NCBI RefSeq assembly: GCF_057098645.1
Contig: NZ_CM169472.1
Strand: one strand, 5' to 3'
DNA: 64,000 nt
This document shows, one piece after another, positions 10,401 through 50,519 of this stretch; positions within the stretch are counted from its first letter, which is position 1; each line of letters opens with the position of its first letter. The notes below the pieces were generated by a model. The model had not been told where the DNA came from, searched no databases, and was given only the letters and a program-made list of their open reading frames with translations. Made by a program: the position numbers and the translations under genes.

Positions 10401-10437
10401 CCGACGCTGATGAAACGTCGGTTTTTAGTCATTTTTT
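10401..10437. terminator. Candidate bidirectional intrinsic terminator between yeeY and plaP
   Basis: Hairpin accgacg...cgtcggt flanked by an A-run upstream and a T-run downstream. Confidence 0.5.
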
Positions 10438-10509
10438 GACAGCGGCGCATTGTGCCTAAATGGGGGGGAAATGACAAGAGAATGAGAGGCTTGTCATAAT
10501 AATTTTTCT

Positions 10510-11439: not shown

Positions 11440-11484
11440 ACACGCCCCCTTGCAGTGTATGCGGCGTCCTGCTGGCGTGATCGT

Positions 11485-12309: not shown

Positions 12310-12391
12310 CCGTTATCTCCTGATACACCTTAGATCTATAAGGCTACGCTAGCGTATCAAAACTGACAATTCATTCTATGAATGAATCTGT

Positions 12392-12646
12392 TCAATAATG
12401 ATAACGACATGCTGCAATGAGCAGTGAATCATCAGTAACCGCGTATACCAGACGGTGCTCCTCTGTAATGCGTCGGGACCAGAAACCTGACAAATTATGT
12501 TTCAGGGGTTCTGGTTTCCCCTTACCTTCAAATGGTGTTCTGCGGGTATCTTTGATAAGTTCATTGATCTTTTTAACAATTCGCTTATCTGTTTCCTGCC
12601 AGTACAGATAATCATCCCATGATTCCTCAGACCAGATTAGTTTCAC
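12392..12646 (-). CDS. yoeB: Type II toxin YoeB (ribosome-dependent mRNA interferase)
   Basis: 84-aa ORF recognised as YoeB; overlaps yefM by 4 nt. Confidence 0.9.
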
Positions 12647-12894
12647 TCAATAATGTCCTTTTCCGTTCCTTTGCCTGATTTCAGGCTATCGATTGAGTCC
12701 ATCAATCTCCGGGCGTTAGCGGGGGAACGCAGTAGATAAGCCGTCTCTTCCAGCGAGTTGTATTCTTCGAGTGACATCAGAACACAAGCCTCTCCATTCT
12801 GACGAGTAATGAGGATCGGGGCATGATCTTCAACGGCTTTCATCATTGTTGCCGACAAATTCTGACGCGCTTCGCTGTAACTAATTGTACGCAT
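12643..12894 (-). CDS. yefM: Type II antitoxin YefM
   Basis: 83-aa ORF recognised as YefM, directly upstream of yoeB. Confidence 0.9.
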
Positions 12895-12904
12895 GTCAAT
12901 CTCC

Positions 12905-12932
12905 TCTTTTGTACAGCTTATTGTACAATGAT
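12905..12932. promoter_or_regulatory. yefM-yoeB operator/promoter with two TGTACA core repeats
   Basis: tgtaca at 12910-12915 and 12922-12927 (centres 12 bp apart), 16 bp upstream of the yefM start. Confidence 0.6.
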
Positions 12933-13104
12933 AGACGTTGATTCACTATTTATTAATTAGTTTGTAGATCAAGACATTGTCAGTGAGACGAAAAATCCAG
13001 GCTTCGCTATTTTGGGTACCGTCAGGTTAGAGGACAGTCCTCTTAGCGCCCTCCTTTCCCCGCTCATTCATTAAACAAATCCATCGCCATAAAATATATA
13101 AAAA

Positions 13105-13145
13105 AGCCCTTGCTTTCTAACGTGAAAGTGGTTTAGGTTAAAAGA
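13105..13145 (+). promoter_or_regulatory. Candidate his operon promoter (-35 ttgctt, -10 taggtt)
   Basis: ttgctt at 13110-13115 and taggtt at 13134-13139, about 40 bp upstream of hisL; hexamer choice is by eye. Confidence 0.45.
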
Positions 13146-13177
13146 CATCAGTTGAATAAACATTCACAGAGACTTTT

Positions 13178-13228
13178 ATGACACGCGTTCAATTTAAACA
13201 CCACCATCATCACCATCATCCTGACTAG
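13178..13228 (+). CDS. hisL: his operon leader peptide (16 aa, seven consecutive His codons)
   Basis: ATG ACA CGC GTT CAA TTT AAA CAC CAC CAT CAT CAC CAT CAT CCT GAC TAG read directly. Confidence 0.95.
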   Translation: MTRVQFKHHHHHHHPD

Positions 13229-13289
13229 TCTTTCAGGCGATGTGTGCTGGAAGACATTCAGATCTTCCAGTGGTGCATGAACGCATGAG

Positions 13290-13330
13290 AGAGCCCCCGG
13301 AAGATCACCTTCCGGGGGCTTTTTTATTGC
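13290..13330 (+). terminator. his attenuator terminator hairpin plus U-tract
   Basis: agcccccggaagatcaccttccgggggc followed by ttttttatt, immediately upstream of hisG. Confidence 0.9.
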
Positions 13331-13373
13331 GCGGTTGATAACGGTTCAGACAGGTTTAAAGAGGAATAAGAAA

Positions 13374-14273
13374 ATGACAGACAACACTCGTTTACGCATA
13401 GCTATGCAGAAATCCGGCCGTTTAAGTGATGACTCACGCGAATTGCTGGCGCGCTGTGGCATTAAAATCAATCTTCACACCCAGCGCCTGATCGCGATGG
13501 CAGAAAACATGCCGATTGATATTCTGCGCGTGCGTGACGACGACATTCCCGGTCTGGTAATGGACGGCGTGGTAGACCTTGGAATTATCGGCGAAAACGT
13601 GCTGGAAGAAGAACTGCTTAACCGCCGCGCCCAGGGTGAAGATCCGCGCTACTTTACCCTGCGTCGACTGGATTTCGGCGGCTGCCGCCTTTCGCTGGCA
13701 ACGCCGGTTGATGAAGCCTGGGACGGCCCGCTCTCCTTAAATGGTAAACGTATCGCCACCTCTTATCCTCACCTGCTCAAGCGTTATCTCGACCAGAAAG
13801 GCATCTCTTTTAAATCCTGCTTACTGAACGGTTCTGTTGAAGTCGCCCCGCGTGCCGGACTGGCGGATGCGATTTGCGATCTGGTTTCCACCGGTGCCAC
13901 GCTGGAAGCAAACGGCCTGCGTGAAGTCGAAGTTATCTACCGCTCGAAAGCCTGCCTGATCCAGCGCGATGGCGAAATGGAAGAATCCAAACAGCAACTG
14001 ATCGACAAACTGCTGACCCGTATTCAGGGTGTGATCCAGGCGCGCGAATCAAAATACATCATGATGCACGCACCGACCGAACGTCTGGATGAAGTCATCG
14101 CCCTGCTGCCAGGTGCCGAACGCCCAACCATTCTGCCGCTGGCGGGTGACCAACAACGCGTAGCGATGCACATGGTCAGTAGCGAAACCCTGTTCTGGGA
14201 AACGATGGAAAAACTGAAAGCGCTGGGTGCCAGTTCAATCCTGGTCCTGCCGATTGAGAAGATGATGGAGTGA
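13374..14273 (+). CDS. hisG: ATP phosphoribosyltransferase
   Basis: ORF 13335..14273 trimmed to [16 protein letters not shown] (ATG at 13374); 299 aa. Confidence 0.95.
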
Positions 14274-14278
14274 TCGCC

Positions 14279-16649
<2,371 letters not shown>

Positions 16650-16650
<1 letters not shown>

Positions 16651-17716
16651 TGAGTCAGAAGTATCTTTTTATCGATCGCGATGGAACCCTGATTAGCGAA
16701 CCGCCGAGTGATTTTCAGGTGGACCGTTTTGACAAACTCGCCTTTGAACCGGGCGTGATCCCGGAGCTGCTGAAGCTGCAAAAAGCGGGATATAAGCTGG
16801 TGATGATCACTAATCAGGATGGTCTTGGAACACAAAGTTTCCCGCAGGCGGATTTCGATGGCCCGCACAACCTGATGATGCAGATCTTCACCTCGCAAGG
16901 CGTACAGTTTGATGAAGTGCTGATTTGCCCACACCTGCCCGCCGATGAGTGCGACTGCCGTAAGCCGAAAGTAAAACTGGTGGAGCGTTATCTCGCTGAG
17001 CAAGCGATGGATCGCGCCAACAGTTATGTGATTGGCGATCGCGCGACCGACATTCAACTGGCGGAAAACATGGGCATTAATGGTTTACGCTACGACCGCG
17101 AAGCCCTGAACTGGTCGATGATTGGCGAACAACTCACCAAACGAGACCGTTACGCCCATGTAGTGCGCAACACCAAAGAGACGCAGATTGACGTTCAGGT
17201 ATGGCTGGATCGCGAAGGTGGCAGCAAGATTAACACCGGCGTTGGCTTCTTTGATCATATGCTGGATCAGATCGCTACCCACGGCGGTTTCCGTATGGAA
17301 ATCAACGTCAAAGGCGACCTCTATATCGACGATCACCACACCGTCGAAGATACCGGCCTGGCGCTGGGGGAAGCGTTAAAAATTGCCCTCGGCGATAAAC
17401 GCGGTATTTGCCGCTTTGGTTTTGTGCTGCCGATGGACGAATGCCTTGCCCGCTGCGCGCTGGATATCTCTGGTCGCCCGCACCTGGAATATAAAGCTGA
17501 ATTTACCTACCAGCGCGTGGGCGATCTCAGCACCGAGATGATCGAGCACTTCTTCCGTTCGCTTTCATACACCATGGGCGTGACGCTACACCTGAAAACC
17601 AAAGGTAAAAACGATCACCACCGTGTAGAGAGCCTGTTCAAAGCCTTTGGTCGTACCCTGCGCCAGGCCATCCGCGTCGAAGGCGACACCCTGCCCTCGT
17701 CGAAAGGAGTGCTGTA

Positions 17717-17717
<1 letters not shown>
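16650..17717 (+). CDS. hisB: Bifunctional histidinol-phosphatase / imidazoleglycerol-phosphate dehydratase
   Basis: ATG at 16650 overlapping the hisC stop; [15 protein letters not shown] start; 355 aa. Confidence 0.95.
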
Positions 17718-19795
<2,078 letters not shown>

Positions 19796-23039: not shown

Positions 23040-24446
23040 TTAATCCAGCCATTCGGTATGGAACACACCTTCTTTATCAATGCGCTTATAAGTATGTGCA
23101 CCGAAATAGTCACGCTGTGCCTGGATCAGGTTCGCAGGCAGAACAGCGGAACGGTAGCTGTCATAATAGGCAACCGCAGCGGCGAAGGTCGGAACCGGGA
23201 TACCGTTCTGTACTGCATAAGCAACGACATCGCGCAGCGCCTGCTGATAGTCATCGGCAATTTGCTTGAAGTACGGAGCCAGCAGCAGGTTAGCGATCTG
23301 CGGATTTTCGGCATAGGCATCGGTGATTTTCTGCAGGAACTGCGCACGGATGATGCAGCCAGCACGGAAAATCTTCGCGATTTCGCCGTAGTTCAGATCC
23401 CAGTTGTATTCTTCAGACGCAGCACGCAGCTGAGAGAAGCCCTGAGCGTAAGAAACGATTTTGCCCAGATACAGCGCACGACGAACTTTTTCAATGAACT
23501 CAGCTTTGTAGCCAGCTGGCTGCGCTTGCGGGCCAGAGAGAACTTTAGACGCGGCAACACGCTGATCTTTCAGAGAAGAGATATAACGTGCAAACACAGA
23601 CTCGGTAATCAGCGACAGCGGTTCGCCGAGATCCAGCGCGCTCTGGCTGGTCCATTTACCGGTACCTTTGTTAGCCGCTTCATCCAGAATCACATCAACC
23701 AGGTAGTTACCGTCTTCATCTTTTTTAGTGAAGATATCTTTGGTGATGTCGATCAGGTAGCTGCTCAGTTCACCGTTATTCCACTCGGTAAAGGTCTGTG
23801 CCAGTTCTTCGTTGGTGAGGTTCAGGCCACCTTTAAGCAGAGAATAAGCTTCAGCAATCAGCTGCATATCACCGTATTCAATACCGTTGTGAACCATCTT
23901 CACATAGTGACCCGCGCCATTGGCACCAATATAGGTAACGCATGGCTCACCGTCTTCAGCCACTGCGGCGATTTTGGTCAGGATCGGTGCAACCAGTTCA
24001 TAGGCTTCTTTCTGGCCACCAGGCATAATGGAAGGTCCTTTCAGTGCACCTTCTTCCCCACCGGAAACACCGGTACCAATGAAATTAAAGCCTTCTGCAG
24101 AAAGCTCACGATTACGACGAATAGTGTCCTGGAAGAAGGTATTACCACCGTCAATAATGATGTCACCTTTATCGAGGTATGGCTTGAGGGAATCAATAGC
24201 AGCATCCGTGCCTGCACCTGCTTTAACCATTAACAGGATGCGACGAGGCGTTTCCAGAGATTCAACGAACTCTTTCACCGTATAGTAAGGAACCAGTTTT
24301 TTGCCTGGATTTTCGGCAATCACTTCTTCCGTCTTTTCACGGGAACGGTTGAAAATAGAGACGGTATAACCACGGCTTTCGATGTTAAGCGCAAGATTGC
24401 GCCCCATCACTGCCATACCGACTACGCCAATCTGTTGCTTGGACAT
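23040..24446 (-). CDS. gnd: 6-phosphogluconate dehydrogenase (decarboxylating)
   Basis: 468-aa ORF recognised as Gnd. Confidence 0.95.
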
Positions 24447-24563: not shown

Positions 24564-24962
24564 TCACACGAACGATTTTGCAAAAGAAGGGTCAAATGGC
24601 CCCTCTTTAACTTCCACCATAAGAGCACGCGGAGATAGGCATTCGACACTGTGTATATCGCCCGGAGAAAACTCCACAATGCTTATTCCAATATTATCTC
24701 CTGCTATAAATTGCTTTATAACCTCACCATTTCTACCATACAAACAAACCTGAAGTTGCCCCTCCATAACAATGAACATTTCCCACTGATGAGGAAGTTT
24801 GTGATAATGCGGTTCAACATAGCTGCCCTTTACTAATGCAATAAGTAAACGCTGTACCTTTTCTTGATGCGAGCCGTGCATAATAAGGTGGGAACGTAAA
24901 CGTTCCGATTGCTCGGCTTGATCATATAATTTGTCGAGTTGGTCATTATCAATTAATCGCAT
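24564..24962 (-). CDS. wbuC: WbuC-family cupin protein (function unknown, associated with L-FucNAc O-antigen clusters)
   Basis: 132-aa ORF; position after wbuB at the gnd-proximal end of the fnl module. Confidence 0.7.
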   Translation of the reverse strand: MRLIDNDQLDKLYDQAEQSERLRSHLIMHGSHQEKVQRLLIALVKGSYVEPHYHKLPHQWEMFIVMEGQLQVCLYGRNGEVIKQFIAGDNIGISIVEFSPGDIHSVECLSPRALMVEVKEGPFDPSFAKSFV

Positions 24963-26163
24963 TGCATGCCTCCAACCTCATTTCTATCGTCTGTGCCGCA
25001 GACTCAACGGAGAATTGTTCTTTCAACAATATATTCGCCCCCGAACCAAGTTGCCGGCGCACATCAATATCATGCAACATTAATAGCGCAGATTGACATA
25101 ATTTATCGTCCTCACCATTGACATGGATTAATCCGGCATTATTTTGATTGACAATGTCGAGCAAATCATTTCCGGCATTTACGCTACCTAAAATAGGTAG
25201 CGACTGAACCATATAGCCTAATAACTTACCAGGAAAATTATGGGAAGAGTGTCTAGCGGAAAGAGAAAACAAGCCGATATCCATTTCCGACAAAATGAAC
25301 TTAAATTCATCCTGATTAACCGAGGGCAAATAGGTGAAATTCGTCAATGCCCACTCAGAGGCTAATGAATTAATTAATTCAACTTCATCACCCTGGCCAA
25401 TAAATAGGAAATGAGCTTGAGGATATGCTGCCATGTTTCTCACAAGTCGCATCAAGTTTGTCATGTCCTGTGCATGACCTATGTTTCCACCATAGAAGAA
25501 AATGGTTTTATCCTCTAGGCCAAGTCGCTTACGTAGTGGTATGTAATCCTTGGGTATGATCGTTGGTGTTAGGGATGCCCAATTACGCAAAACTTCGCAC
25601 GGATAGCCTTTATTATCTTTCCGAAAAACATCAAGATTCTTATCAGACATAAGTCCAATACGATTTGCCTGACGATAAGATATTTTTTCAAAAAGACGAA
25701 AGTAGCGTTCTATTGGGGAACCAGCATTAAGGATTCCTGCATCAATTACCCATTGTGGAAACATATCTCTTAAAATAAGATAAGCAGGACATTGGCAACG
25801 AGCTTTAATTTTTTTAACTAAATACCCCCAGAATATGGAAGGTGAATAATAAATCACACCCTCAAAGGTCTCTTTTTTTACCCATTTTTTGATGGCTTTC
25901 CACGCCCGATAGGACAAAAGCGTTTCATTGACCACTCGCTGAATTTTACTTACATCCTTGAGCGGCCCGCTTTTAAAACGCCATGTTTTTACCCCCTGAA
26001 AGGTATCAAAAGAAATCTCTTCTTGCATGCCCGTACCAGGAGTAATTACCGTAACATCGTGCCCACGCTGGATAAATTCTTGAGCAAGTTCATGAAACAT
26101 TTTTGCACCAACACGAGTACTGTTGGGCAGGTAATCATCTATGATTAAAGCAAGTTTCATCAA
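24949..26163 (-). CDS. wbuB: GT4-family glycosyltransferase (putative L-FucNAc transferase WbuB)
   Basis: 404-aa ORF with GT-B fold features; directly downstream of fnlC. Confidence 0.75.
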   Translation of the reverse strand: MMKLALIIDDYLPNSTRVGAKMFHELAQEFIQRGHDVTVITPGTGMQEEISFDTFQGVKTWRFKSGPLKDVSKIQRVVNETLLSYRAWKAIKKWVKKETFEGVIYYSPSIFWGYLVKKIKARCQCPAYLILRDMFPQWVIDAGILNAGSPIERYFRLFEKISYRQANRIGLMSDKNLDVFRKDNKGYPCEVLRNWASLTPTIIPKDYIPLRKRLGLEDKTIFFYGGNIGHAQDMTNLMRLVRNMAAYPQAHFLFIGQGDEVELINSLASEWALTNFTYLPSVNQDEFKFILSEMDIGLFSLSARHSSHNFPGKLLGYMVQSLPILGSVNAGNDLLDIVNQNNAGLIHVNGEDDKLCQSALLMLHDIDVRRQLGSGANILLKEQFSVESAAQTIEMRLEACNAIN

Positions 26164-27290
26164 TATTCTTTCCAGACAACTCTCTTAACATAATCTGTGT
26201 AAGAGTGAACAATTCTGACAACTTTATCCGACACATTTGGCATGCTGTAATCACTAACCTGACGTAAAAGACGGACTTCACCTCGCGGTTGTGTTGCCAG
26301 AATATCCAGCGCTTGTAATACGCGTTCACACTCTAACCCCACCATCATGACGGATGCTTCCTCAAAGCCTTCCGGACGCTCATGCGCTTCCCGGATGTTT
26401 ACCGCTGGGAAATTCATGATGGATGACTCTTCAGTGATAGTACCGCTATCTGAAAGCACAGCTCGTGAGTTCTTCTGCAAGTGGTTATAATCATGGAAAC
26501 CCAATGGTTTCAGTAGATTTATATTTGAATGAAATTCAATTCCTTGCTCACGGATTCGGTTACGTGTCCTTGGGTGTGTGGAGACAATAACTGGAAGATT
26601 ATATTTTTCAGCAACAGTATTTAGAATGTTCGCAAGCTTTACGAGCTGTTTTGGAGAATCAACATTCTCTTCACGATGCGCACTTACTACAAAAAACTCA
26701 CCAGACTGTAGATTCAAACGCGATAGCACATCTGAACCATCAATTTGGGGCATATAATATGAAAGAACCTCAAACATAGGGCTACCAGTTTTTATAATCC
26801 GATCAGCTGGGATACCTTCAGCCAAGAGATATTCACGAGCAATATCACTGTAGGTCATATTGATATCAGCCGTATGGTCAACAATACGTCTGTTGGTTTC
26901 TTCAGGCACGCGTTGATCGAAACAACGGTTACCTGCTTCCATATGAAATATAGGAACTTTATGGCGTTTGGCCGGAATGGCAGAAATACATGAATTCGTA
27001 TCGCCCAATACCAGTATTGCTTCAGGTTTTTCGATTTCTAATACTTCATCTACCTTAATAATAACTTGGCCAATGGTTTCCGCCGCATTTTTTCCCGCTG
27101 CATTTAAAAAATAATCAGGTTTTCGAACACCCAAGTCATTGAAGAATACTTCATTTAATTCGTAATCATAATTTTGACCAGTATGGACAATAATATGCTC
27201 GCAGTATTCATCAAACTTAGCAAGAACCCTCGACAAACGGATAATCTCAGGACGGGTTCCAACAACAGACATAACTTTTAATTTTTTCAT
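26160..27290 (-). CDS. fnlC: UDP-N-acetylglucosamine 2-epimerase (FnlC/Cap5G type)
   Basis: 376-aa ORF with non-hydrolysing UDP-GlcNAc 2-epimerase sequence (MSVVGTRPEIIRLS, HTGQNYD, HMEAGNR). Confidence 0.85.
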   Translation of the reverse strand: MKKLKVMSVVGTRPEIIRLSRVLAKFDEYCEHIIVHTGQNYDYELNEVFFNDLGVRKPDYFLNAAGKNAAETIGQVIIKVDEVLEIEKPEAILVLGDTNSCISAIPAKRHKVPIFHMEAGNRCFDQRVPEETNRRIVDHTADINMTYSDIAREYLLAEGIPADRIIKTGSPMFEVLSYYMPQIDGSDVLSRLNLQSGEFFVVSAHREENVDSPKQLVKLANILNTVAEKYNLPVIVSTHPRTRNRIREQGIEFHSNINLLKPLGFHDYNHLQKNSRAVLSDSGTITEESSIMNFPAVNIREAHERPEGFEEASVMMVGLECERVLQALDILATQPRGEVRLLRQVSDYSMPNVSDKVVRIVHSYTDYVKRVVWKEY

Positions 27291-28411
27291 TATAGAGGTC
27301 TCGCAATAGTATCGGGCTCATCACGGTTGAAAATTTCATTTGCCCAGAGCATGACTATTAATTCCTCAGTTCCAATATTTGTAATGTCATGTGTCCAACC
27401 AGGAACTGTTTCAACAATCTTGAACTCATCCGATGAAACATTCAGTTCATATCGCTCACCGGTAATCACATGTTCAAATTTAAAGCATGCCTGACCTCGA
27501 ATGACCAAAAACTTCTCATTTTTACTGTGATGGTAATGTCCGCCACGCGTAATACCAGGGTGAGCAGTAAAAAATGAAAACTGCCCCGCTGAAGGCGTTT
27601 TCAACATCTCACAAAAGACTCCGCGGGCATCCCCATAAAAAGGTACCTTGTACGCAAACTTCTCTGCTGGTAAATAAGTCAGCCATGTAGAATACAATGC
27701 ACGGGTAAATCCCGTCCCGACAGCCTCTGTGATCAGGGTGGAACGGCTATTCTTGAATCTATAAATTAATTCTGCAACTTCACCAACAGTAGTTGAATAA
27801 ATTGGTGCAACAGCTTTATATCCGCTTTCAGTTGCCCCCGAGAGAAGCTCTATCGCTTTAGCACAAACATCATCAATATAAACCAAATTAACTGGCGCAG
27901 ATGCATCATTGATAGTTATGGCAAGATCATTCGCAATATTATAGCAAAAAGTCGCAACAAAAGAATTATAATTTGGTTTGCACCATTTGCCAAAAACGTT
28001 TGGATATCTGAAAATATAATATGGAGAACCACTAGTAGTAGCATATTTTTCAATATAACGTTCAGCTAAAGCTTTGCTTACCCCATAAGCATTGTCAAGT
28101 TCTGCTTGTATAGAAGAACTTAGCATAATTGGTATCTTCTTTCCTATAGAAATAAGATACTCAACTATGTATTTAGTTAAATCACTGTTTCCGGATTTAA
28201 ATTCATCATCAGTCTTTGGTCTATTGACTCCAGCCAAATGATAAATGAAATCAGCGTCCTGTAAGCCTTGTTCAAGATCTTGTTCTGTTGAATCCCGATC
28301 AATTCTAATAAGATTCTTGTAACCTAGTTCCTCAAGCCTCAAACTTAAATTACGGCCAATAAAACCATTTGCACCAGTAATCAATATTTTTATATCATGA
28401 GTCTTAGCCAT
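27290..28411 (-). CDS. fnlB: UDP-2-acetamido-2,6-dideoxy-hexose reductase/epimerase (FnlB/Cap5F type)
   Basis: ORF 27290..28435; probable start at internal Met MAKTHDIKILITGANGFIG (avoids overlap with fnlA); start uncertain. Confidence 0.8.
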   Translation of the reverse strand: MAKTHDIKILITGANGFIGRNLSLRLEELGYKNLIRIDRDSTEQDLEQGLQDADFIYHLAGVNRPKTDDEFKSGNSDLTKYIVEYLISIGKKIPIMLSSSIQAELDNAYGVSKALAERYIEKYATTSGSPYYIFRYPNVFGKWCKPNYNSFVATFCYNIANDLAITINDASAPVNLVYIDDVCAKAIELLSGATESGYKAVAPIYSTTVGEVAELIYRFKNSRSTLITEAVGTGFTRALYSTWLTYLPAEKFAYKVPFYGDARGVFCEMLKTPSAGQFSFFTAHPGITRGGHYHHSKNEKFLVIRGQACFKFEHVITGERYELNVSSDEFKIVETVPGWTHDITNIGTEELIVMLWANEIFNRDEPDTIARPL

Positions 28412-28415
28412 GTTG

Positions 28416-29432
28416 TTAACCTGCATGAAGTGCACGAATAAAATCCAATTTGAGCAAAAGCGTTTTCATGCCTTCAACGTTCAACCGTTGTGTATTATGA
28501 GAGTTGTAATCTTCAACCTCGGATATACGACTATCACCTTGTTCAACATATTTTCCATAATTAAGGTCACGAAGATCTGGTGGTATACGATAATAATCCC
28601 CCATATCTTCAGCAGAGAGCATTTCCTCACGACTGAGCAAAGCTTCAAATAACTTCTCACCATGACGCGTACCAATAATATTTACTGGGTGATGAGCAGC
28701 ATTTAGTAAATCCTTTAAAGCAGTTGCTAATGTTTCGATAGTTGCAGCTGGAGCTTTTTGTACAAAAATATCTCCGTTATTACCATGTTCGAATGCATAA
28801 AGTACTAAATCTACAGCATCCTCAAGAGTCATCATAAAACGGGTCATGTTAGGGTCAGTAATTGTTAGTGGCTTGCCAGATTTGATAAGATCAACAAATA
28901 ATGGAATAACAGATCCACGAGAGGCCATGACATTCCCATAACGGGTACCACATATTACTGTTTTGTTGCAGTCAACATTACGCGATTTCGCAACCATGAC
29001 TTTTTCCATCATAGCTTTTGAAATTCCCATAGCGTTGATCGGATATACAGCTTTATCAGTACTAAGACACACAACCCTTTTAACTTCATTCGCTATAGCA
29101 GCTTCAAGCACATTTTCTGTACCAAGAACATTAGTTTTAACAGCCTCCACAGGATGAAACTCACATGATGGAACTTGCTTAAGTGCCGCTGCGTGATATA
29201 TAAAATCAACTCCGCGAGTCGCATTCAAAATACTACGATAATCTCTAACATCACCAATATAGAATTTCAATTTTTTATTGTTATAATTTTTACGCATATC
29301 ATCTTGCTTTTTTTCATCACGACTAAATATGCGTATTTCTTTTACATCTGTGGAAAGAAAGCGATTTAATACAGCATTCCCAAATGAACCAGTACCACCA
29401 GTGATTAACAGTATTTTATCTTTGAACATCAT
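28416..29432 (-). CDS. fnlA: UDP-GlcNAc 4,6-dehydratase/5-epimerase (FnlA/Cap5E type)
   Basis: 338-aa ORF, ILLITGGTGSFG start and SDR sequence typical of FnlA/CapE. Confidence 0.85.
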   Translation of the reverse strand: MMFKDKILLITGGTGSFGNAVLNRFLSTDVKEIRIFSRDEKKQDDMRKNYNNKKLKFYIGDVRDYRSILNATRGVDFIYHAAALKQVPSCEFHPVEAVKTNVLGTENVLEAAIANEVKRVVCLSTDKAVYPINAMGISKAMMEKVMVAKSRNVDCNKTVICGTRYGNVMASRGSVIPLFVDLIKSGKPLTITDPNMTRFMMTLEDAVDLVLYAFEHGNNGDIFVQKAPAATIETLATALKDLLNAAHHPVNIIGTRHGEKLFEALLSREEMLSAEDMGDYYRIPPDLRDLNYGKYVEQGDSRISEVEDYNSHNTQRLNVEGMKTLLLKLDFIRALHAG

Positions 29433-29438
29433 AACCCC

Positions 29439-30230
29439 TTATAAACGATTACTCATTACACCATTACAAATAATATCTTTCTGTTCAGGTGTTGGATAGC
29501 TTATCAATACTGCCCTATACTTCCCTTTAAATACAAAAAGACTACCAGCTGCCGCACCAACGATGCCACATTGGTCAATCAGTGCAGAAAGATGGTCATA
29601 ACTACCAGCGCCCCCGAGAAACGTAACAGGAATATTTATTTGCGATTTGATAGTTGAGCAATATGCAACGTCATATCCTCCCATGACACCATCATTATCT
29701 ACAAAATTGATGACAATTTCTCCAGCTCCCAGATCGGCCATTTCCTTTGCAAACGAGACGGGATCGATTTTATGCTTGCGAGTGTTATTCCTTGTCGAAA
29801 GTTCATAGCCCTTTGAGAATAGACCTTTTCGTTTGATAATATCCAGCACAACAACAACACTTTGTTTTCCAACCGCTTCTGCCAATTCTCTAACAAGATT
29901 AGGATTTTCAACAGCTGCTGAACTTATTGATACCTTTTCAACACCAAGAGAGATAATTTTTGTAGCCTGTGCTACGCTGGTTACGCCTCCTCCATAGCAT
30001 AAAGGCATACGGCATTCCGCTGCGAGTTTTTTTATTAAATCATAATTAGGTTCGAGTCCCCTGGATGTCGCATCAATATCTAGGACCATCAATTCATCAG
30101 CTTCTTTCTCATTGAAAATTTTGACGGCATTAATTGGATCACCAACATACTTAGGGGATTTAAAATTAACTGTTTTGACTAAGCCAGAATCGTGGATAAG
30201 TAAACAGGGTATGATTCTTGGTCTAAGCAT
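29439..30230 (-). CDS. wbuZ: HisF-like cyclase subunit of an N-acetyl sugar amidotransferase system (WbuZ)
   Basis: ORF 29439..30248; start MLRPRIIPCLL aligns with the HisF N-terminus [11 protein letters not shown]; paralog of hisF at 19026. Confidence 0.8.
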   Translation of the reverse strand: MLRPRIIPCLLIHDSGLVKTVNFKSPKYVGDPINAVKIFNEKEADELMVLDIDATSRGLEPNYDLIKKLAAECRMPLCYGGGVTSVAQATKIISLGVEKVSISSAAVENPNLVRELAEAVGKQSVVVVLDIIKRKGLFSKGYELSTRNNTRKHKIDPVSFAKEMADLGAGEIVINFVDNDGVMGGYDVAYCSTIKSQINIPVTFLGGAGSYDHLSALIDQCGIVGAAAGSLFVFKGKYRAVLISYPTPEQKDIICNGVMSNRL

Positions 30231-30234
30231 GCTA

Positions 30235-30849
30235 TTAGATCTCTGCAAAATTTTTTAGTAGTTGGGATCCCGATGAATGGCTTTTCTCTGGATGACATTG
30301 AATACCATATATGTTATTCCTGCTAATTATACAATGAAAATTATGACCATAATTAGCAGTTGCCAATACATCACCTGTGTCATCACATTCGTAATAGTAT
30401 GAGTGTAAAAAATAAAATGAAGGTTCTACTGCGAAATCTTTCAGCAATGGTGTACTTGTTCTTTTAATTAAATTATTCCATCCCATGTGGGGCATCGGGA
30501 GGTTTTGTGAAGAGATATTGCTACTAAATGCTCGAACCGTACCTGGAATCCATCCTAAACCTGGCATGCTCCCCTCCTCACTAGAGGTCGCAAGCATTTG
30601 CATACCCACACAGATACCAATAATTGGAATCTTTTCTTCATATACACGTTTTTCAATACTATCTCGTAAACCTGAATTATTAAAAAGAGTCATAGCTTGA
30701 TCAAAAGCCCCAACTCCAGGCAGTATTAAATGTGTAGCACTAAAAATATCATCAACAGAACGAGCAACACCCGCATTAATGCCTAGTCGCTTATATACAT
30801 TCAAAAATGCTTGTATATTTCCAATACCATAATCAATGATTGTAATCAT
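30235..30849 (-). CDS. wbuY: HisH-like glutamine amidotransferase subunit (WbuY)
   Basis: ORF 30235..30912 trimmed to MITIIDYGIGNIQ (abuts the wbuX stop); class I GATase with catalytic Cys (GICVGMQ); paralog of hisH. Confidence 0.8.
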   Translation of the reverse strand: MITIIDYGIGNIQAFLNVYKRLGINAGVARSVDDIFSATHLILPGVGAFDQAMTLFNNSGLRDSIEKRVYEEKIPIIGICVGMQMLATSSEEGSMPGLGWIPGTVRAFSSNISSQNLPMPHMGWNNLIKRTSTPLLKDFAVEPSFYFLHSYYYECDDTGDVLATANYGHNFHCIISRNNIYGIQCHPEKSHSSGSQLLKNFAEI

Positions 30850-31988
30850 CTGAAATACCTTTTTTCTAATCCAAGTGCACGTAAGACATTCGCACCTAAA
30901 CCAATCAACCAACGCTTATTCTTATAATCCTTATATGTTTTTTTGGGCATAAAAAATAGCTCTTGCAAATTTTCAACACTAATACCAAGTTTGTGCGCTA
31001 CATACTCAAACTCTTGTTTAAGAAAGTGCTCATCCATTTCTGGTTTTGAAATCCTCTCAAGAGCTTGTTCACGAGACATTTGTCCCGTCATAATTAAACT
31101 CGAAAAGTGAGCTCTTCGTTTCTCATAACCAAATCTGCGTGGCAGCCAATAATCTTCATAAAACCGGGTGAAACGGGACTCATGATGTTTATGCTGGAAG
31201 GGTTGCCAGCCAAATTTTTTATTAAGTTCATTTTCTGCATCCTTCTTATTAAAAGGAACTAAATTTAGTGGATGATGCACTTTCATACCAAGAATTTTCT
31301 GATAGTAAATTTTATAAACCAATATATCCACTAAAGGAAAAGTTTTTAACGGTTTTTCTCCAAATTTCGTATGGATATCATTAAATAACAGAGTATCAAT
31401 GCCTAAATATCCTCCCCATTCTTCTGGTTCACGACAACACTCAGTAGAAAAATTGGACCCCGTAATGACATGTTTAATTCTATGTTGTCGAGCAAACTTA
31501 TATAATGATGAAAAAAAGGAAGCGTCCTGAACTAGATCTTGATCTGGAATTCCTGATTTTAAGAAAGACAGTTGAAGATCTTTCATTTCCTCCCAGTTTA
31601 CTACCTCTGTATAAAGTTCTAAACCAAGGCCTTCAATAAGTTTTTCAATATTACCAACAGCCTGATCTGTATTCCAGCCGGCATCAACATGGAATAATAA
31701 TGGGCGTAGCCCCATCTTTTCTTTTGCAATATATGCAGCATATGAACTATCAAGCCCCCCTGATAGTCCAATAATACAATCAAAATCACTATTCTTTGCG
31801 TCCGCCTTTATTTTACTTGCCATTTCAGATAAAGAAACATCTGAAAACAAACCTTTTCTCCATGTCGGCAATATATTGTTTTTATAATTGGCGCAGTAAT
31901 TGCATACTCCGCTATCATCAAAAGTAATATGAGGATCAGATGTATCCATAATACAATGATTACAAATTTGATAATTTTTATTTTCCAT
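30846..31988 (-). CDS. wbuX: N-acetyl sugar amidotransferase, PP-loop ATP pyrophosphatase family (WbuX/WbpG-like)
   Basis: 380-aa ORF with SGGLDSS PP-loop motif and N-terminal Cys cluster. Confidence 0.8.
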   Translation of the reverse strand: MENKNYQICNHCIMDTSDPHITFDDSGVCNYCANYKNNILPTWRKGLFSDVSLSEMASKIKADAKNSDFDCIIGLSGGLDSSYAAYIAKEKMGLRPLLFHVDAGWNTDQAVGNIEKLIEGLGLELYTEVVNWEEMKDLQLSFLKSGIPDQDLVQDASFFSSLYKFARQHRIKHVITGSNFSTECCREPEEWGGYLGIDTLLFNDIHTKFGEKPLKTFPLVDILVYKIYYQKILGMKVHHPLNLVPFNKKDAENELNKKFGWQPFQHKHHESRFTRFYEDYWLPRRFGYEKRRAHFSSLIMTGQMSREQALERISKPEMDEHFLKQEFEYVAHKLGISVENLQELFFMPKKTYKDYKNKRWLIGLGANVLRALGLEKRYFR

Positions 31989-33234
31989 ACACGCCCTTAT
32001 TTTTTCTAATGGTCATAAGTATCTCGTCAATTTTATTTTGATCAATATTATCTAATTCATGAAGAATAACTATTTTATTCAACTCTTTGTATTGATATGC
32101 CAAAGTGGAAGGATACGAAATGACAATATCTACATCAGGGAAATAATCATCATCTGTAATGAAATTCCATTTTGTCTTTTTGGCTTTTTCAGATGCTCTA
32201 GCTTTTGGATGTTCTTTATAATAAAGAACAATATTATCTGATAACGTTGAAAGTTGTGACCCAAGACTTAGTTGTCCTCGTTCACACAATGAATGCCCAA
32301 TAATTAGAATTGATAATCCTTTATTATTAATTGATGAAACATAAAATGGCTGTTGATAGAAATGAATTTTTATATTGTAATCATTAGCCTGTGAGATTAT
32401 ATGCTCTAAAAATAATTCAAGCTCAATTTCGTTAAAGATAGCGAGCTCTGATACAGCTTTCAGTTTATATGAGAGAGAGAAAAATTCATAACCCTTAGTC
32501 TTTAACGCCAGTAACGAGCCATGTTGAATTAATATATATCTTTTCCTTTTTATTCTGCATATAAAATCAGTTAAAACAGCCCAACGATCATAATGTTCAC
32601 TACTTGCGAGATTGCCTTTAATATTATTCATTCCCATAGCAACCAAAAACCAAGAAGGTGCTGTATAAATATGAAGAAGCCATTTTATACGTGATGGTTT
32701 TAAATAATAGATATAACTAAAAATAGATAACAAGAATGCTCTTGCCACATCTAGAAACGATGTTAATTCATATAAATTAATAGCATTAAAGTCACAACTC
32801 GTTGGTGTATAATTTACCCATGGTAATTTTATTATAATAAGTTCATCTCGAGATAATTTGTAACTATCATTATCTTTAAAAAAATAGCAAGTTTGCCTCA
32901 TTTCTAAATCTGAAAACGAAAAATAGTAAAATTTACCTTCCTTATTATTAGCAACCTTTATTTCTGAAATGGAATTTTTAAATTTAGCCAATATATATTT
33001 AGCAAAAAATAATATAACATATAATAAAAACCCCCCAAAAATAAAGGCAAACATAATCACTGCATAAATAATTTGCAAACTCGATGAACTCCACCTTTCC
33101 CCAGCCCATTTACTTGTCCTGGGAAGTGGTGGCATTTTTTTTGTAATGCTTTTTGATAAAGACTTATCGATATCTATTTCATTTTGTGTTGCGTGTAAAT
33201 AACATTCTATTATTTGCGACATTGATAATTGCAT
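31978..33234 (-). CDS. Uncharacterised membrane-anchored protein; candidate glycosyltransferase (possibly sialyltransferase)
   Basis: 418-aa ORF; one hydrophobic helix near residues 55-80; no recognisable motif by eye other than an HP dipeptide in the C-terminal half; position between wzy and wbuX. Confidence 0.45.
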   Translation of the reverse strand: MQLSMSQIIECYLHATQNEIDIDKSLSKSITKKMPPLPRTSKWAGERWSSSSLQIIYAVIMFAFIFGGFLLYVILFFAKYILAKFKNSISEIKVANNKEGKFYYFSFSDLEMRQTCYFFKDNDSYKLSRDELIIIKLPWVNYTPTSCDFNAINLYELTSFLDVARAFLLSIFSYIYYLKPSRIKWLLHIYTAPSWFLVAMGMNNIKGNLASSEHYDRWAVLTDFICRIKRKRYILIQHGSLLALKTKGYEFFSLSYKLKAVSELAIFNEIELELFLEHIISQANDYNIKIHFYQQPFYVSSINNKGLSILIIGHSLCERGQLSLGSQLSTLSDNIVLYYKEHPKARASEKAKKTKWNFITDDDYFPDVDIVISYPSTLAYQYKELNKIVILHELDNIDQNKIDEILMTIRKNKGVYGK

Positions 33235-33236
33235 AT

Positions 33237-34424
33237 TTATCTTCCTATAGAGCTTTTAACTAATTTATATTTATATATATAATATCCGCATGAGATAAAG
33301 AACAATTGATTTACAGGAAAAGAATTTATAAATGAATTTGAAAGCCCGGATATTAGGAAATAAATAAAAACAACTCTCCAAATGGCTATATCTTCAGCCA
33401 TTAACTCATTAAATATTTTAAATTGTATGTTCCAGAAGATAAGCAGCAATAAAATTAATAAAACAATAAAAAAGCCGATTAGACCGGCATAATTAAACAT
33501 TACGAGATAAAAGTTATCTGAAATGAGATTTATATTTTTATCTAAAAAATCAGGTAGCAACATATTCAGATCAACTAAATTTAAATATGTCAGAAAGTTT
33601 TCAACTCGAATTGATGCCGTATACGTATTAAGACCTCGATATTGTGATTCAATACCAGAGATACTGCCCATATAAAATATGGCGTACAATGCACCGCAAA
33701 CAGTGCCAATGCTTGCAAGAGTAAATATTTTTTTTCGCAAGCGAATGCTGGCACTGTCTCTCAATACTACTGTTAATAAAAGTGTCATACCAAGTGATAA
33801 CCATGCTGTGCGCGAACCACTGCTAATTAACGTTATCATCGGCATTATAAGAAATAAAGCTCTTTTAAAAAGACTTTTTATATTTGTCACCAAGGCGATT
33901 AAAATAATAATCGCTGAATAAGCACCACTATTCGTAGGATTCAGAAGAGAAGATATTGACCTAATCCCATCAGTGGCAGCCCAATATGAAACCATATAAT
34001 TATAAAATACCGTTAATTCTAATACAGAAATCGTGCCTACAATAACTCCTGTCCATAAAAGAACTCTATTAACTTTCACCATATTATAAGAAAATAGAGG
34101 AATAATCAGGCAAAAGCTGATCATAGTTGCAATAATCAACATTGTTGTTGCGTAAATTGTTACCGCACCACTGAAAAGGGCTGAAGCAACAGACAGGAAC
34201 AAGAAAAAAAACAATACAAAAAAATAATTAAATTTCTTGTAAATAAATAAGATACTTAGACTTATAACTAAGCAAACTATATATTTTATAATTTTTTGCG
34301 TTAAATCTTCATTATATTTTAATGTGTCAACACCAGAAAAAATAGCATTTAAGTAATATAACGAAGAAATAATTAACCAAAAAAAAAGCACTCCATTTAT
34401 AAACTTATCTTTCTTTATATTCAC
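33237..34424 (-). CDS. wzy: O-antigen polymerase
   Basis: 395-aa highly hydrophobic polytopic ORF, AT-rich, next to wzx. Confidence 0.7.
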   Translation of the reverse strand: MNIKKDKFINGVLFFWLIISSLYYLNAIFSGVDTLKYNEDLTQKIIKYIVCLVISLSILFIYKKFNYFFVLFFFLFLSVASALFSGAVTIYATTMLIIATMISFCLIIPLFSYNMVKVNRVLLWTGVIVGTISVLELTVFYNYMVSYWAATDGIRSISSLLNPTNSGAYSAIIILIALVTNIKSLFKRALFLIMPMITLISSGSRTAWLSLGMTLLLTVVLRDSASIRLRKKIFTLASIGTVCGALYAIFYMGSISGIESQYRGLNTYTASIRVENFLTYLNLVDLNMLLPDFLDKNINLISDNFYLVMFNYAGLIGFFIVLLILLLLIFWNIQFKIFNELMAEDIAIWRVVFIYFLISGLSNSFINSFPVNQLFFISCGYYIYKYKLVKSSIGR

Positions 34425-34431
34425 GTTTATT

Positions 34432-35670
34432 TTAAACCTTTTTTAGAATTTTATATAACGGGATCATTTTTAAGATCAAAAGTAATACAAAACTAGCTAT
34501 CATACCAATTAGCAAGTAATAGATATCACTTTGACATACGCTAAAAAAAACAAATAGTAAAAAAGATAAAAATGATATCAGTTGACTTACTAATATGTAA
34601 CGATCTTCTCTCATCGCGTATAAAGCAATATGTGGAATAAGACTTATACAATAGATATAAGTCGCTGCTATTAATAATATAAATACAGGAAATAATTGTA
34701 TGTAATCTCGTTTATCCAACCACTTAACCAATATAATCCCAGTAAAAAAGCAACAGATGCTCAAGAAAGATAGTAGTAAAATTAATTTATAAGTGAATTT
34801 TCTTAACTCAGATTTAAATTTTATATATTTTTTCCCTGAATATAACAAGGCAAGCTTTGGAAATGAAAAAGATATCAAAATAGTATCCAAAAATGATTGA
34901 ATAGCTGAAGTCATACTAACAAATAATGTATATCCCCCCAAAACTTCTAGGCCCGATATTTTTTCTACCGCGAATCTATCAAACGTGAAAAAGCCTCGTA
35001 GTGCAAGGGCTGCAATTAGCATTGGTACAGACAGCTTTATACCTTTTTTTATCCACGTCCAATCCCAGTTTGTAATATCGCTTTGTTTTTTTTTATTTAA
35101 AATATAAGCCACTCCAAGCACACTCGCGGACACAGTACCACCAAACCAAAAAATAAATACAACTGTTATATTTCTTAAGTTCGGATACACTAGCATCACA
35201 GCTATAGCTAACCAACACCATACACCTTGTCTTACAAAAAGAATAAAACTTGCAATCGATTGGCTTTCTATTGTTATTAGAACTCTATTAATCTCTTGTG
35301 ATAAGTGCTCAAAAAATAAAAGTAGGATAAACCAGTATTCACTTCCAGATGGTAATATTTCTAAATATAATAAAAAAATAAATGCCGGTATACATAGTAT
35401 ATAAGATATAACAGTAAATAGAGCTTGATTTTTTAGTATAAAAAAAAGCCTATTTTTTTGCGAGTTAATTATTTCTCTCGTTGAATACGTATAAAACTCA
35501 AAACCTACAACGAAAATACCATATCCTACAGCTGCATTAATTAATCCATACACTCCTAAATCTGTTGATGGTAAAAGTCGAGCAAGCAAAACAATGAAAA
35601 TAAATTTAGTAAGTAGAGTAATCCCTCTTAATCCAACACTTGAGTAATACTTAAGCATAGTATTAAACAT
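34432..35670 (-). CDS. wzx: O-antigen flippase (polysaccharide transporter family)
   Basis: 412-aa polytopic membrane ORF with Wzx-like N-terminus. Confidence 0.75.
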   Translation of the reverse strand: MFNTMLKYYSSVGLRGITLLTKFIFIVLLARLLPSTDLGVYGLINAAVGYGIFVVGFEFYTYSTREIINSQKNRLFFILKNQALFTVISYILCIPAFIFLLYLEILPSGSEYWFILLLFFEHLSQEINRVLITIESQSIASFILFVRQGVWCWLAIAVMLVYPNLRNITVVFIFWFGGTVSASVLGVAYILNKKKQSDITNWDWTWIKKGIKLSVPMLIAALALRGFFTFDRFAVEKISGLEVLGGYTLFVSMTSAIQSFLDTILISFSFPKLALLYSGKKYIKFKSELRKFTYKLILLLSFLSICCFFTGIILVKWLDKRDYIQLFPVFILLIAATYIYCISLIPHIALYAMREDRYILVSQLISFLSFLLFVFFSVCQSDIYYLLIGMIASFVLLLILKMIPLYKILKKV

Positions 35671-35801
35671 CCAAGGCCAATGTTAAAATCGGAAGTTTTT
35701 AATCTGTGATTATTAAATTTGCAATAATTTAAATATTAATATGAGGTTTTTAAATTTTAAATATCATACAAATAACTTATTAAAAACAATACCCATGTTG
35801 T

Positions 35802-36980
35802 TTATTTTAAATGACTATAGTCATATGCAACATCATAGAAGTCTTTATAATCCAACTTTTCATAAGTTAAAAAATCTTTAATGATTTTAACAATACTATT
35901 CATTACATCATTATTATAGTAAGGATTATGAGCATTTTTTACACGTTCAATGAAACTTTTCTGTTGTGAATAAGCAATGGCACATTCTATACTTTCTTTT
36001 TTACATATGGTATCTATTACCGAATCACCTCTAACCCTTCCTTTTTGGCGATCGCCTATATTAATCGTCGGAACCTTTAAGCTTGGAACCTCAATTAACC
36101 CAGATGACGAATTGCCTATTAAGCCATATGAATATTTTATCAAAGCTAGATATTCTTCAGGTCTCACAGAAATCATATATCGACAGCCATATACTCTACA
36201 AAAATCGAGAGTCATTTCTCTTATTTGTTCTGAACCAGTATCAGCATTTGAGCCAATAAAGATATAATCGTATTCTTCGCTAAAACTAGCTAATGCTTCT
36301 AGTAATTCTAAATACTGCTCTCTAACAGGTAAAGTTGATAACGTTTCAGGATGAAATACGACTACGAAATATTTTCTATTTAACCCACCGTACTTATTTT
36401 CAAGCTCCTTTTTAGAGGGTAATTCTAGTTGCAAACTGTTTTCAGCCCCTAGCGCACCTACATTAAATACACAATTAGGATCTTCACCAAGTTGGATAAC
36501 CCTTTTCCGATATTCATCAGTTGATACTAGATGTAGACGACTCATTTTCGTTATTGAATGTCGTATAAATTCATCATAATTCCCTAACGTTTTCTCTCCA
36601 CCATGAAGATGAATAATAGGTAGGTTATGCATAGAAGCTGCTACTGCCACTGAAAATATTTCGTATCGATCACCTAATATAATGACAGCATCATATTTTT
36701 TCTCTTGGAAATGCTCACCAAATGCTTGTTGGCATATCGACATCGTTTTCAAAACATCTGCGTTGGTTTTATTTTTCAGCTGCAAATCAATTAATTTTTC
36801 AATTAAGAAACCATCATTCTCGATTGTTTTATATGTATAACCATATTCAGAATCGCAATGCATACCTGTTGCAATAATTGATAAATCAATATCAGGATCA
36901 TCTTTTAGACTTTTTAATAGTCGTTTCATAATACCGTACTCAGCTCTTGAGCCGGTGACATAGAGCAATTTTCTTTTCAT
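35802..36980 (-). CDS. neuC: UDP-GlcNAc 2-epimerase (hydrolysing), ManNAc-forming, NeuC type
   Basis: 392-aa ORF, MKRKLLYVTGSRAEYG start typical of NeuC/SiaA. Confidence 0.85.
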   Translation of the reverse strand: MKRKLLYVTGSRAEYGIMKRLLKSLKDDPDIDLSIIATGMHCDSEYGYTYKTIENDGFLIEKLIDLQLKNKTNADVLKTMSICQQAFGEHFQEKKYDAVIILGDRYEIFSVAVAASMHNLPIIHLHGGEKTLGNYDEFIRHSITKMSRLHLVSTDEYRKRVIQLGEDPNCVFNVGALGAENSLQLELPSKKELENKYGGLNRKYFVVVFHPETLSTLPVREQYLELLEALASFSEEYDYIFIGSNADTGSEQIREMTLDFCRVYGCRYMISVRPEEYLALIKYSYGLIGNSSSGLIEVPSLKVPTINIGDRQKGRVRGDSVIDTICKKESIECAIAYSQQKSFIERVKNAHNPYYNNDVMNSIVKIIKDFLTYEKLDYKDFYDVAYDYSHLK

Positions 36981-50444: not shown

Positions 50445-50519
50445 GTCGTTACCCTTTTTCAGGCAATAGTTGGCCCTGACCGAAACGGCCAATTTTGTTT
50501 TTGTCGTTATTTACATCTC

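Follow-up and report, generated by a model that had tools for sequence, protein, structure and literature searches.

Bacterial sialyltransferases of the glycosyltransferase (GT) families GT38, GT52 and GT80 and of Pfam PF05855 have two motifs in common, D/E-D/E-G and HP (Freiberger et al., PMC2169525). In PmST1, the histidine of the HP motif contacts the phosphate of cytidine monophosphate (CMP), and HP mutants of the meningococcal polysialyltransferase show a raised Km for CMP-N-acetylneuraminic acid (CMP-Neu5Ac) (PMC2169525). The enzymes adding sialic acid to Escherichia coli O-chains have been described as "not well characterized" (PMC9631793), and information on legionaminyltransferases as "very limited" (PMC11356810). 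O145 is one of five E. coli O-antigens with Neu5Ac and one of three with acetimidoyl groups, and the WbuB proteins of O118 and O145 were assigned the linkage between N-acetimidoyl-L-fucosamine (L-FucNAm) and N-acetylglucosamine (GlcNAc), L-FucNAm-(alpha1-3)-D-GlcNAc (2019 review). Here we analyzed a stretch of 64,000 nucleotides (the window; contig NZ_CM169472.1 of assembly GCF_057098645.1) that carries an O145 O-antigen locus, and within it a gene for a 418-residue protein annotated as hypothetical. We propose that this protein is most probably the O145 sialyltransferase, a GT-B enzyme that transfers Neu5Ac onto L-FucNAm and whose widespread sequence family is missing from the protein-family databases searched. 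O145 is a main non-O157 serogroup of Shiga-toxin E. coli, and its O-antigen is a serotyping and vaccine target; to our knowledge, the enzyme that adds its sialic acid has never been characterized.

The gene lies in a same-strand run of genes between galF (40246-41151) and gnd (23040-24446). Megablast matched its 1257 bases at 100% identity to 37 complete E. coli genomes, with one copy per chromosome, and the serotype-labeled genomes among these were all O145. The RefSeq gene order in O145:H28 strain RM12581 is galF, an acetyltransferase gene (neuD), neuB, a cytidylyltransferase gene (neuA), neuC, wzx and wzy (both annotated as O145 family), the gene under study (WP_001177241.1), and then genes for an N-acetyl sugar amidotransferase, HisH, an AglZ/HisF2 acetamidino protein, FnlA, WbjC, a WecB-type epimerase, a GT4 glycosyltransferase and WbuC, followed by gnd. 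The NCBI annotation pipeline PGAP names WP_001177241.1 "hypothetical protein", and no other operon gene is so called. A preliminary description of this DNA, made from the letters alone, had singled out the 418-residue open reading frame (ORF) as the only gene of the O-antigen operon without a recognizable role, and the ORF list and the RefSeq gene order confirm this. It had also named wbuB as the only obvious glycosyltransferase gene of a locus with no recognizable sialyltransferase; in the RefSeq annotation, the GT4 protein WbuB is indeed the sole recognized glycosyltransferase. The O145 repeat, reportedly described by Feng et al. in 2005, is said to be a trisaccharide of GlcNAc, L-FucNAm and Neu5Ac only, with no phosphodiester, in which Neu5Ac is presumably joined to FucNAm by an alpha-(2->3) linkage. 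Given such a trisaccharide, one further transferase is needed for Neu5Ac, since WecA starts with GlcNAc, WbuB adds FucNAm and Wzy makes one linkage. As every other gene of the locus has a named role, elimination points to the 418-residue protein for this step.

The strongest evidence for the proposed function comes from genomic context. Seven relatives were located by exact sequence and 23 loci were retrieved from species-representative genomes using patterns derived from this family alone. Loci were scored by tblastn with the window proteins, and our counts cover the 29 loci that had a family member and usable flanks. A NeuB-type nonulosonic acid (NulO) synthase was encoded within 10 kb of the family gene in all 29 loci, and a CMP-transferase homolog was present in 28. 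FnlA (at least 67% identity) and the WbuX amidotransferase were each found in 23/29 loci; FnlA and WbuX were absent from the loci of Mesorhizobium (L026) and Agrobacterium (L027) and from L016 and L035, and a further locus (L036) had fnlABC and no amidotransferase gene. FucNAm genes are thus frequent but nonobligatory neighbors of the family gene. Judged by marker genes, the donor cassette was of the neuraminic acid (Neu) type in three loci (E. coli O145, Xenorhabdus and Photorhabdus), of the legionaminic acid (Leg) type in 17, including that of Pseudomonas aeruginosa PA7, and of the pseudaminic acid (Pse) type in five. In each locus, the tblastn searches with NeuC and FnlC detected no genes beyond the known neuC and fnlC. 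We also observed that the block order family gene, amidotransferase gene, hisH-like, hisF-like, fnlA/B/C and GT4 gene is kept (L002-L008 and L014-L036, locus coordinates about 10001-18500) across Enterobacterales, Pseudomonas, Aeromonas, Burkholderiales, Neisseriales and Sphingomonadaceae, with the upstream cassette swapping between Neu, Leg and Pse. This block resembles a mobile module of acceptor and transferase functions that is joined to interchangeable donor cassettes.

Natural controls were available within E. coli. The O118/O151 locus carries the same FucNAm module (wbuX DNA 82% identical; FnlC and WbuB proteins 99%), and we found in it no NulO genes and no homolog of the O145 protein; the position immediately upstream of wbuX is taken by a GT4 gene. 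In O104 and O131, neuDBAC is combined with a GT52 gene, and in K1 with the gene of a GT38 polysialyltransferase, in each case without the gene studied here. In the E. coli loci inspected, this gene is mutually exclusive with recognized sialyltransferases. Thus, from the 29 loci together with the E. coli controls, the gene tracks NulO synthesis and not FucNAm synthesis. In E. coli 14EC029 (NZ_CP024141.1; L013:12451-15948), neuDBAC, wzy, wzx, a gene for a 353-residue "hypothetical" protein and fnlABC occur together, with no amidotransferase or acetamidino genes. By hhalign (probability 95.7%, E 1e-8, 255 columns), the 353-residue protein belongs to the family as a divergent member, and it has the motifs G-H-Y-D-R-Y, Y-Q-H-G-A, L-K-H-P and F-S-R-Y-S-S-L. 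The RefSeq feature table lacks a 415-residue Wzx-like ORF of this locus (13653-14900), and neither wzx nor wzy of the locus was assigned to a named O-family; the locus may represent an undescribed sialylated O-type.

The gene is real, with homologues at 25-70% identity across Proteobacteria and beyond, and chance origin of a 1.25-kb ORF in DNA of 29% G+C is very unlikely. A word-indexed search returned 39 clusters at 23-100% identity, from Salmonella, Citrobacter, Xenorhabdus, Pseudomonas and metagenomes; none of them had a name or a Pfam domain. An exhaustive profile search returned 685 representatives of 50%-identity clusters at E <= 1e-3, 342 of them at E <= 1e-30, and the members were nearly all 390-440 residues long and matched end to end. 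The O145 protein itself had no match in Pfam even at E <= 10, none in NCBIfam, including "glycosyltransferase family 52," and none to the Glycos_transf_1 and Glyco_trans_4 profiles of GT4 (WbuB-like) enzymes; searching PDB sequences with the single sequence or with a 34-sequence profile gave nothing. When the 34 aligned relatives were scanned against Pfam, no family was found at E <= 0.001, and one relative gave a subthreshold match to Glyco_transf_52 (E 6.8e-3). Ten diverse relatives compared with NCBIfam gave nothing but one nonsignificant match, in the HP region, to the family of BFO_1060, a Tannerella NulO transferase (E = 0.023). The preliminary description had been unable to place the protein in any known GT family, and this agrees with the lack of matches in Pfam and NCBIfam and of sequence-level membership in GT52, GT38 or GT80; nor did a non-glycosyltransferase family match with confidence. 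In the literature searched, we found no characterized homologue, and nothing relevant under the name wbuW, which we take to be the name given to this gene, as a putative glycosyltransferase, in the 2005 O145 paper.

We then considered the predicted fold. An AlphaFold2 model built from a 34-sequence alignment had a mean predicted local distance difference test score (pLDDT) of 89.6 and a predicted template modeling score (pTM) of 0.88. Numbered as in the model, where each residue stands one below its full-length number, it consists of helices 4-28 and 49-87, beta/alpha domains at about 100-300 and about 305-395, and a long C-terminal helix, 398-416. The model therefore has the two Rossmann-like domains, the cleft and the C-terminal helix of a GT-B fold. 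Foldseek against the PDB gave weak, generic GT-B matches (best E 1.4e-5), and the fold-search matches included many GT4 enzymes. Against AFDB50, it retrieved the family itself, most members being named "Uncharacterized" and a few autonamed as glycosyltransferase, GT52 or capsule biosynthesis protein; two structural relatives carry the UniProt name "GT52." The same search retrieved Gtr100 of Acinetobacter baumannii (E 1e-18, TM score 0.64-0.73, 19% identity). A weaker structural relative in the AlphaFold database is Q5E8G1 of Aliivibrio fischeri ES114 (E 2e-16, TM score about 0.5); the V. fischeri O-antigen presumably contains 8-epilegionaminic acid and FucNAc, and Q5E8G1 may be a further distant branch of the same functional class. 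Structure prediction and fold comparison, which the preliminary description had suggested as a check, thus yielded a GT-B model and did not single out sialyltransferases: the predicted fold is glycosyltransferase-like and by itself does not indicate a sialyltransferase.

Conservation was computed over 163 full-length relatives and is given in full-length numbering. Columns with at least 95% identity were N18, P38, R39, Y190, W195, H214, D216, R217, W218, A219, D223, Q237, H238, G239, F275, L310, G313, Y339, K340, H342, P343, P366, V368, Y374, S376, T377, L378, Y382 and H392; H314 was conserved at 85%. When mapped on the model, the conserved motifs sit at the C-terminal strand ends in both Rossmann domains. 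Such strand-end crevice positions bind the acceptor and the nucleotide-sugar in Rossmann-type GT-B enzymes, and the donor phosphate is bound in them where the helix after the fourth C-domain strand begins. The KEHPKA segment, whose HP dipeptide had been pointed out at the outset, corresponds to residues 340-345 and follows strand 334-339 (model numbering); H342-P343 is present in 163/163 relatives, and this is the segment that aligns with the HP motifs of GT52 and GT38. Q237-H238-G239 is a candidate for the positional equivalent of the D/E-D/E-G motif.

The N-terminal part has features of its own. Within residues 1-47, N18, P38 and R39 are at least 98% conserved and D23 93%, with pLDDT values of 85-97, which is unexpected for a simple membrane anchor. 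The single hydrophobic helix of the preliminary description was recovered, residues 53-84 being the sole strongly hydrophobic stretch (maximal Kyte-Doolittle 19-residue mean of 2.72); it does not lie at the extreme N terminus, since about 50 conserved residues precede it. Across the family, the maximal mean had a median of 1.69 and a minimum of 0.76 and was at least 1.6 in 99/162 members, so that the helix is hydrophobic enough for a transmembrane segment in enterobacterial members and weak in many relatives. Because of this weak hydrophobicity, the N-terminal module may lie at the membrane interface or re-enter the membrane instead of simply spanning it.

From these data we derived a working mechanism. 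WecA, which is encoded outside the locus, would start the O-unit as GlcNAc-diphosphate (PP)-undecaprenol, and WbuB would then add L-FucNAm. On the cytoplasmic side of the inner membrane, the 418-residue protein would transfer Neu5Ac to this L-FucNAm from CMP-Neu5Ac, the product of NeuDBAC, after which Wzx would flip the finished trisaccharide and Wzy would polymerize it. The enzyme would be of the GT-B type, held at the membrane by its N-terminal helical module, with the donor bound in the C-terminal Rossmann domain. There, H342 together with S376/T377 at a helix N terminus may form contacts with the phosphate of CMP, the role that the HP histidine has in GT38, GT52 and GT80 enzymes. The base that activates the acceptor could be H238, D216 or H214, which belong to the motifs H214-x-D216-R217-W218 and Q237-H238-G239, and R217 is a candidate partner of the sialic acid carboxylate. 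Inverting transfer from CMP-beta-Neu5Ac would yield alpha-linked Neu5Ac.

The predicted GT-B fold, the invariant HP, the NulO synthase genes in 29/29 loci and the GT52 or GT38 genes of those E. coli loci that do without this gene support the idea of the preliminary description that it is a candidate sialyltransferase. Several results weigh against it. Sequence searches of Pfam, NCBIfam and PDB sequences place the protein in no known sialyltransferase family. For comparison, we took WbwA (GT52) from an O104 genome and NeuS (GT38) from a K1 genome and built a family alignment from each; the GT52 invariants were E-D-G / T-Q-P-L-S-E / K-x-H-P-R-E / T-x-x-S and those of GT38 E-E-G / Q / K-x-H-P-K-E / S. 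In hhalign comparisons, the family of the O145 protein matched GT52 with a nonsignificant probability of 26%, aligning L-I-I-G-H-S-L-C-E with L-T-Q-P-L-S-E and Y-Y-K-E-H-P with I-R-Q-H-P, and matched GT38 with 2.8%, the aligned piece being the K-x-H-P strand; the positive control, GT52 versus GT38, reached 92.9%. Single-sequence hhalign against WbwA and against NeuS likewise gave the K-x-H-P strand as the best local segment. A low-stringency profile of 163 sequences brought no gain in probability and gave inconsistent N-domain motif registers, placing Q-H-G on the E-E-G of NeuS and S-Y-P-S-T-L on T-S-S-S-L, with another N-domain register against WbwA. No literal acidic-acidic-Gly tripeptide is conserved in the 163 relatives, so that the family has the HP feature and not D/E-D/E-G and by sequence is a member of neither GT52 nor GT38; it resembles both in architecture and donor-side motifs. 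Fold searches rank GT4 enzymes and NeuC-type epimerases no lower than sialyltransferases, and we infer the roles of individual residues only from secondary-structure position in the model. Moreover, the 29 loci are not independent events, as many share an inherited module of family gene, wbuX, hisH, hisF, fnlABC and GT4 gene, and with the FucNAm module co-occurring in 23/29 loci, some of the context signal reflects inherited synteny.

These points leave room for other explanations. The protein could be a GT-B protein with another role, such as a scaffold or partner of Wzy/Wzx or a transferase of another group, with Neu5Ac added by an enzyme encoded elsewhere. This would fit the lack of significant similarity to any characterized sialyltransferase, the generic GT-B character of the fold matches and the presence of a conserved N-terminal module that lacks an explanation. 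We nevertheless regard it as unlikely, given that the invariant residues, including K-x-H-P, lie at GT-B donor- and acceptor-binding positions, that the O145 locus holds no other candidate transferase, that O104, O131 and K1 each keep their sialyltransferase gene within the locus, and that a NulO synthase co-occurs in every one of the 29 loci.

A function in the L-FucNAm branch, either aiding the acetamidino modification by WbuX/HisH/HisF or transferring FucNAm, would explain why the gene lies directly upstream of wbuX, the amidotransferase gene, in most loci; the two genes adjoin or overlap in the window and in about 23/29 loci. The O118/O151 locus, however, makes FucNAm with the same module and without a homologue, and on the basis of this control we rejected such a function. 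Family members also occur without wbuX or fnl (L026, L027) or with fnlABC and no amidotransferase (L036, L013), and the FucNAm-GlcNAc linkage is already assigned to WbuB-type enzymes, which makes this explanation highly improbable. Hardly more credible is membership in another class with a GT-B-like fold, namely, the NeuC-type hydrolyzing UDP-N-acetylhexosamine 2-epimerases or the TagF-type CDP-alcohol phosphotransferases. Both were rejected, as the protein has no match to the Pfam profiles Epimerase_2 or Glyphos_transf even at E <= 10 and the functions are covered in the locus, which already has neuC and fnlC; moreover, the O145 repeat reportedly consists of GlcNAc, FucNAm and Neu5Ac only and lacks a phosphodiester. 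A sialyltransferase acting on L-FucNAm is thus the explanation that we retain.

The coordinates of the gene, of its segments and of its neighbors are given in the table.

Table 1. Features of the candidate sialyltransferase gene and of the surrounding O-antigen locus (window coordinates)
Feature	Position	Strand	Remarks
Candidate gene, 418 aa + stop	31978..33234	-	ATG start; candidate CMP-Neu5Ac:L-FucNAm-GlcNAc-PP-undecaprenol sialyltransferase
Conserved N-terminal segment, residues 1-47	33094..33234	-	helix about 4-28; near-invariant N18, P38, R39
Hydrophobic helix, residues 53-84, G67-G68 mid-helix	32983..33078	-	putative membrane anchor or membrane-interface helix
N-terminal Rossmann-like domain of GT-B fold, residues about 100-300	32335..32937	-	presumed acceptor side; model
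E-H-Y-D-R-W, residues 213-218	32581..32598	-	after N-domain beta-strand; H214, D216, R217, W218 at least 99%
Q237-H238-G239	32518..32526	-	100% conserved, directly after N-domain beta-strand
C-terminal Rossmann-like domain of GT-B fold, residues about 301-418	31981..32334	-	presumed CMP-sugar side; ends in long helix
G313-H314-x-x-C317-E318	32281..32298	-	after first C-domain strand; aligns with GT52 T-Q-P-L-S-E
K340-x-H342-P343 (HP motif)	32206..32217	-	after second C-domain strand; invariant
Y374-P-S376-T377-L378	32101..32115	-	helix start after fourth C-domain strand
JUMPstart element with ops sequence	40007..40045	-	operon head
neuD, neuB, neuA, neuC	35802..39921	-	synthesis of donor CMP-Neu5Ac
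wzx, O-unit flippase	34432-35670	-	
wzy, O-unit polymerase	33237-34424	-	
wbuX (amidotransferase), hisH-like, hisF-like, fnlA/B/C	26160..31988	-	synthesis of UDP-L-FucNAm (acceptor sugar)
wbuB, GT4	24949..26163	-	makes L-FucNAm-(alpha1-3)-D-GlcNAc, the step preceding the candidate

The candidate gene starts with an ATG 2 nt after the wzy stop codon, with AGGAAG 9 nt upstream of that ATG, and shares its last 11 nt with the beginning of the amidotransferase gene. Its G+C content of 29% lies within a trough of 28-37%, as is typical of O-antigen loci. G+C is 28-33% over neuDBAC, wzx, wzy and the candidate gene (window 32000-40000), rises stepwise to 40% at wbuB and is about 50-55% in the flanks; these steps suggest that the sialic acid and FucNAm halves of the locus differ in their history. 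Elsewhere in the window, a 391-residue ORF antisense within gnd (23058-24233, plus strand) is almost certainly not a gene but a shadow ORF of gnd, which is highly expressed and codon-biased. Three Rfam matches at gathering score, a histidine operon leader (13204-13327, plus strand), the small RNA STnc240 (10390-10464, minus strand) and an algC RNA motif (50449-50498, minus strand), are consistent with a his-gnd-wca chromosomal region.

Beyond O145, we propose that the wider family consists of NulO transferases whose donor, Neu, Leg or Pse, is set by the locus; here the transfer from a CMP-donor is read from gene context. In its full form, this idea is attractive but falls a little short of being the likelier outcome: the relatives would make up a new family of native NulO transferases for Wzy-dependent polysaccharides, using Neu5Ac, legionaminic or 8-epilegionaminic acid or pseudaminic acid, with an HP/Ser-Thr donor site, a set of His-containing motifs (H-x-D-R-W and/or Q-H-G) replacing D/E-D/E-G and an N-terminal membrane module, in which N18, P38, R39 and the GG-containing helix may recognize the undecaprenyl-diphosphate-linked acceptor. 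The idea that this gene encodes the O145 sialyltransferase probably goes back to the description of the locus, and annotation pipelines currently label it hypothetical. Three points appear to be undescribed in the literature searched: the existence of a large and coherent GT-B family that is part of neither Pfam nor NCBIfam nor the sialyltransferase families, its tie to Neu, Leg and Pse cassettes, and the combination of an HP site with a noncanonical N-domain motif. The family would comprise the likely NulO transferases of O-antigen loci of Salmonella, Citrobacter, Photorhabdus, Aeromonas and the P. aeruginosa PA7 type, and its structural relative Gtr100 belongs to the hypervirulence-associated KL49 capsule locus of A. 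baumannii. Defining the family, with an active site open to testing, could lead to annotation rules, antivirulence targets and enzymes for NulO-FucNAc glycoconjugate vaccines.

Finally, we compared the O145 protein with the known systems; as it has no sequence-level membership in any sialyltransferase family, we set its family outside GT52, GT38 and GT80. With GT52, which includes Neisseria Lst/NST and the alpha-2,3-sialyltransferase WbwA of E. coli O104, it has in common the predicted GT-B fold, the K/R-x-H-P strand and the proposed role of a sialyltransferase in a Wzy-dependent O-antigen locus adjoining neuDBAC, and its G-H-x-x-C-E resembles the T-Q-P-L-S-E of GT52 one strand before HP. It differs in its extra length of about 100 residues and its helical, hydrophobic module at the N terminus, in having other invariant motifs in place of E-D-G, and in its proposed acceptor, L-FucNAm rather than galactose. 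The GT38 enzymes (E. coli K1 NeuS; Mannheimia SiaD, PDB 5wc6) are processive or polymerizing proteins that act on sialic acid acceptors and are encoded in ABC-transporter capsule loci; the O145 protein, in contrast, is expected to attach only one residue, in a Wzx/Wzy pathway. KpsS and NeuE of the K1 locus gave no alignment with it; for KpsS, a beta-Kdo transferase of the Capsule_synth type, hhalign gave 0.2%, with no Pfam match. No sequence similarity of the protein to GT80 (Pasteurella PmST1; Photobacterium 2zwi) was detected, and it lacks the D-D-G of that family. The Pse/Leg transferases of Tannerella forsythia (Tanf_01245 / BFO_1060 family) are genetically defined, TagB-like GT-B proteins with HP and D/E-D/E-G motifs (PMC5420450); they serve protein O-glycosylation with an N-acetylmannosaminuronic acid acceptor, unlike the O145 protein. 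A structural relative with the same locus logic is Gtr100 of A. baumannii KL49, a biochemically uncharacterized protein of about 360 residues whose knockout is attenuated, with lowered virulence (PMC7669520). The KL49 locus runs parallel to that of O145, with Leg/8-epilegionaminic acid genes, wzy, gtr100, wzx, fnlABC and the gene of the WbuB-like Gtr20, and with a trisaccharide of NulO, L-FucNAc and GlcNAc. It has two gtr genes only; Gtr20 makes FucNAc-GlcNAc, and the unit consists of Leg, FucNAc and GlcNAc. The elimination that points to the O145 protein as the transferase of Neu5Ac thus holds for KL49 as well, where it points to Gtr100 as the transferase of Leg.

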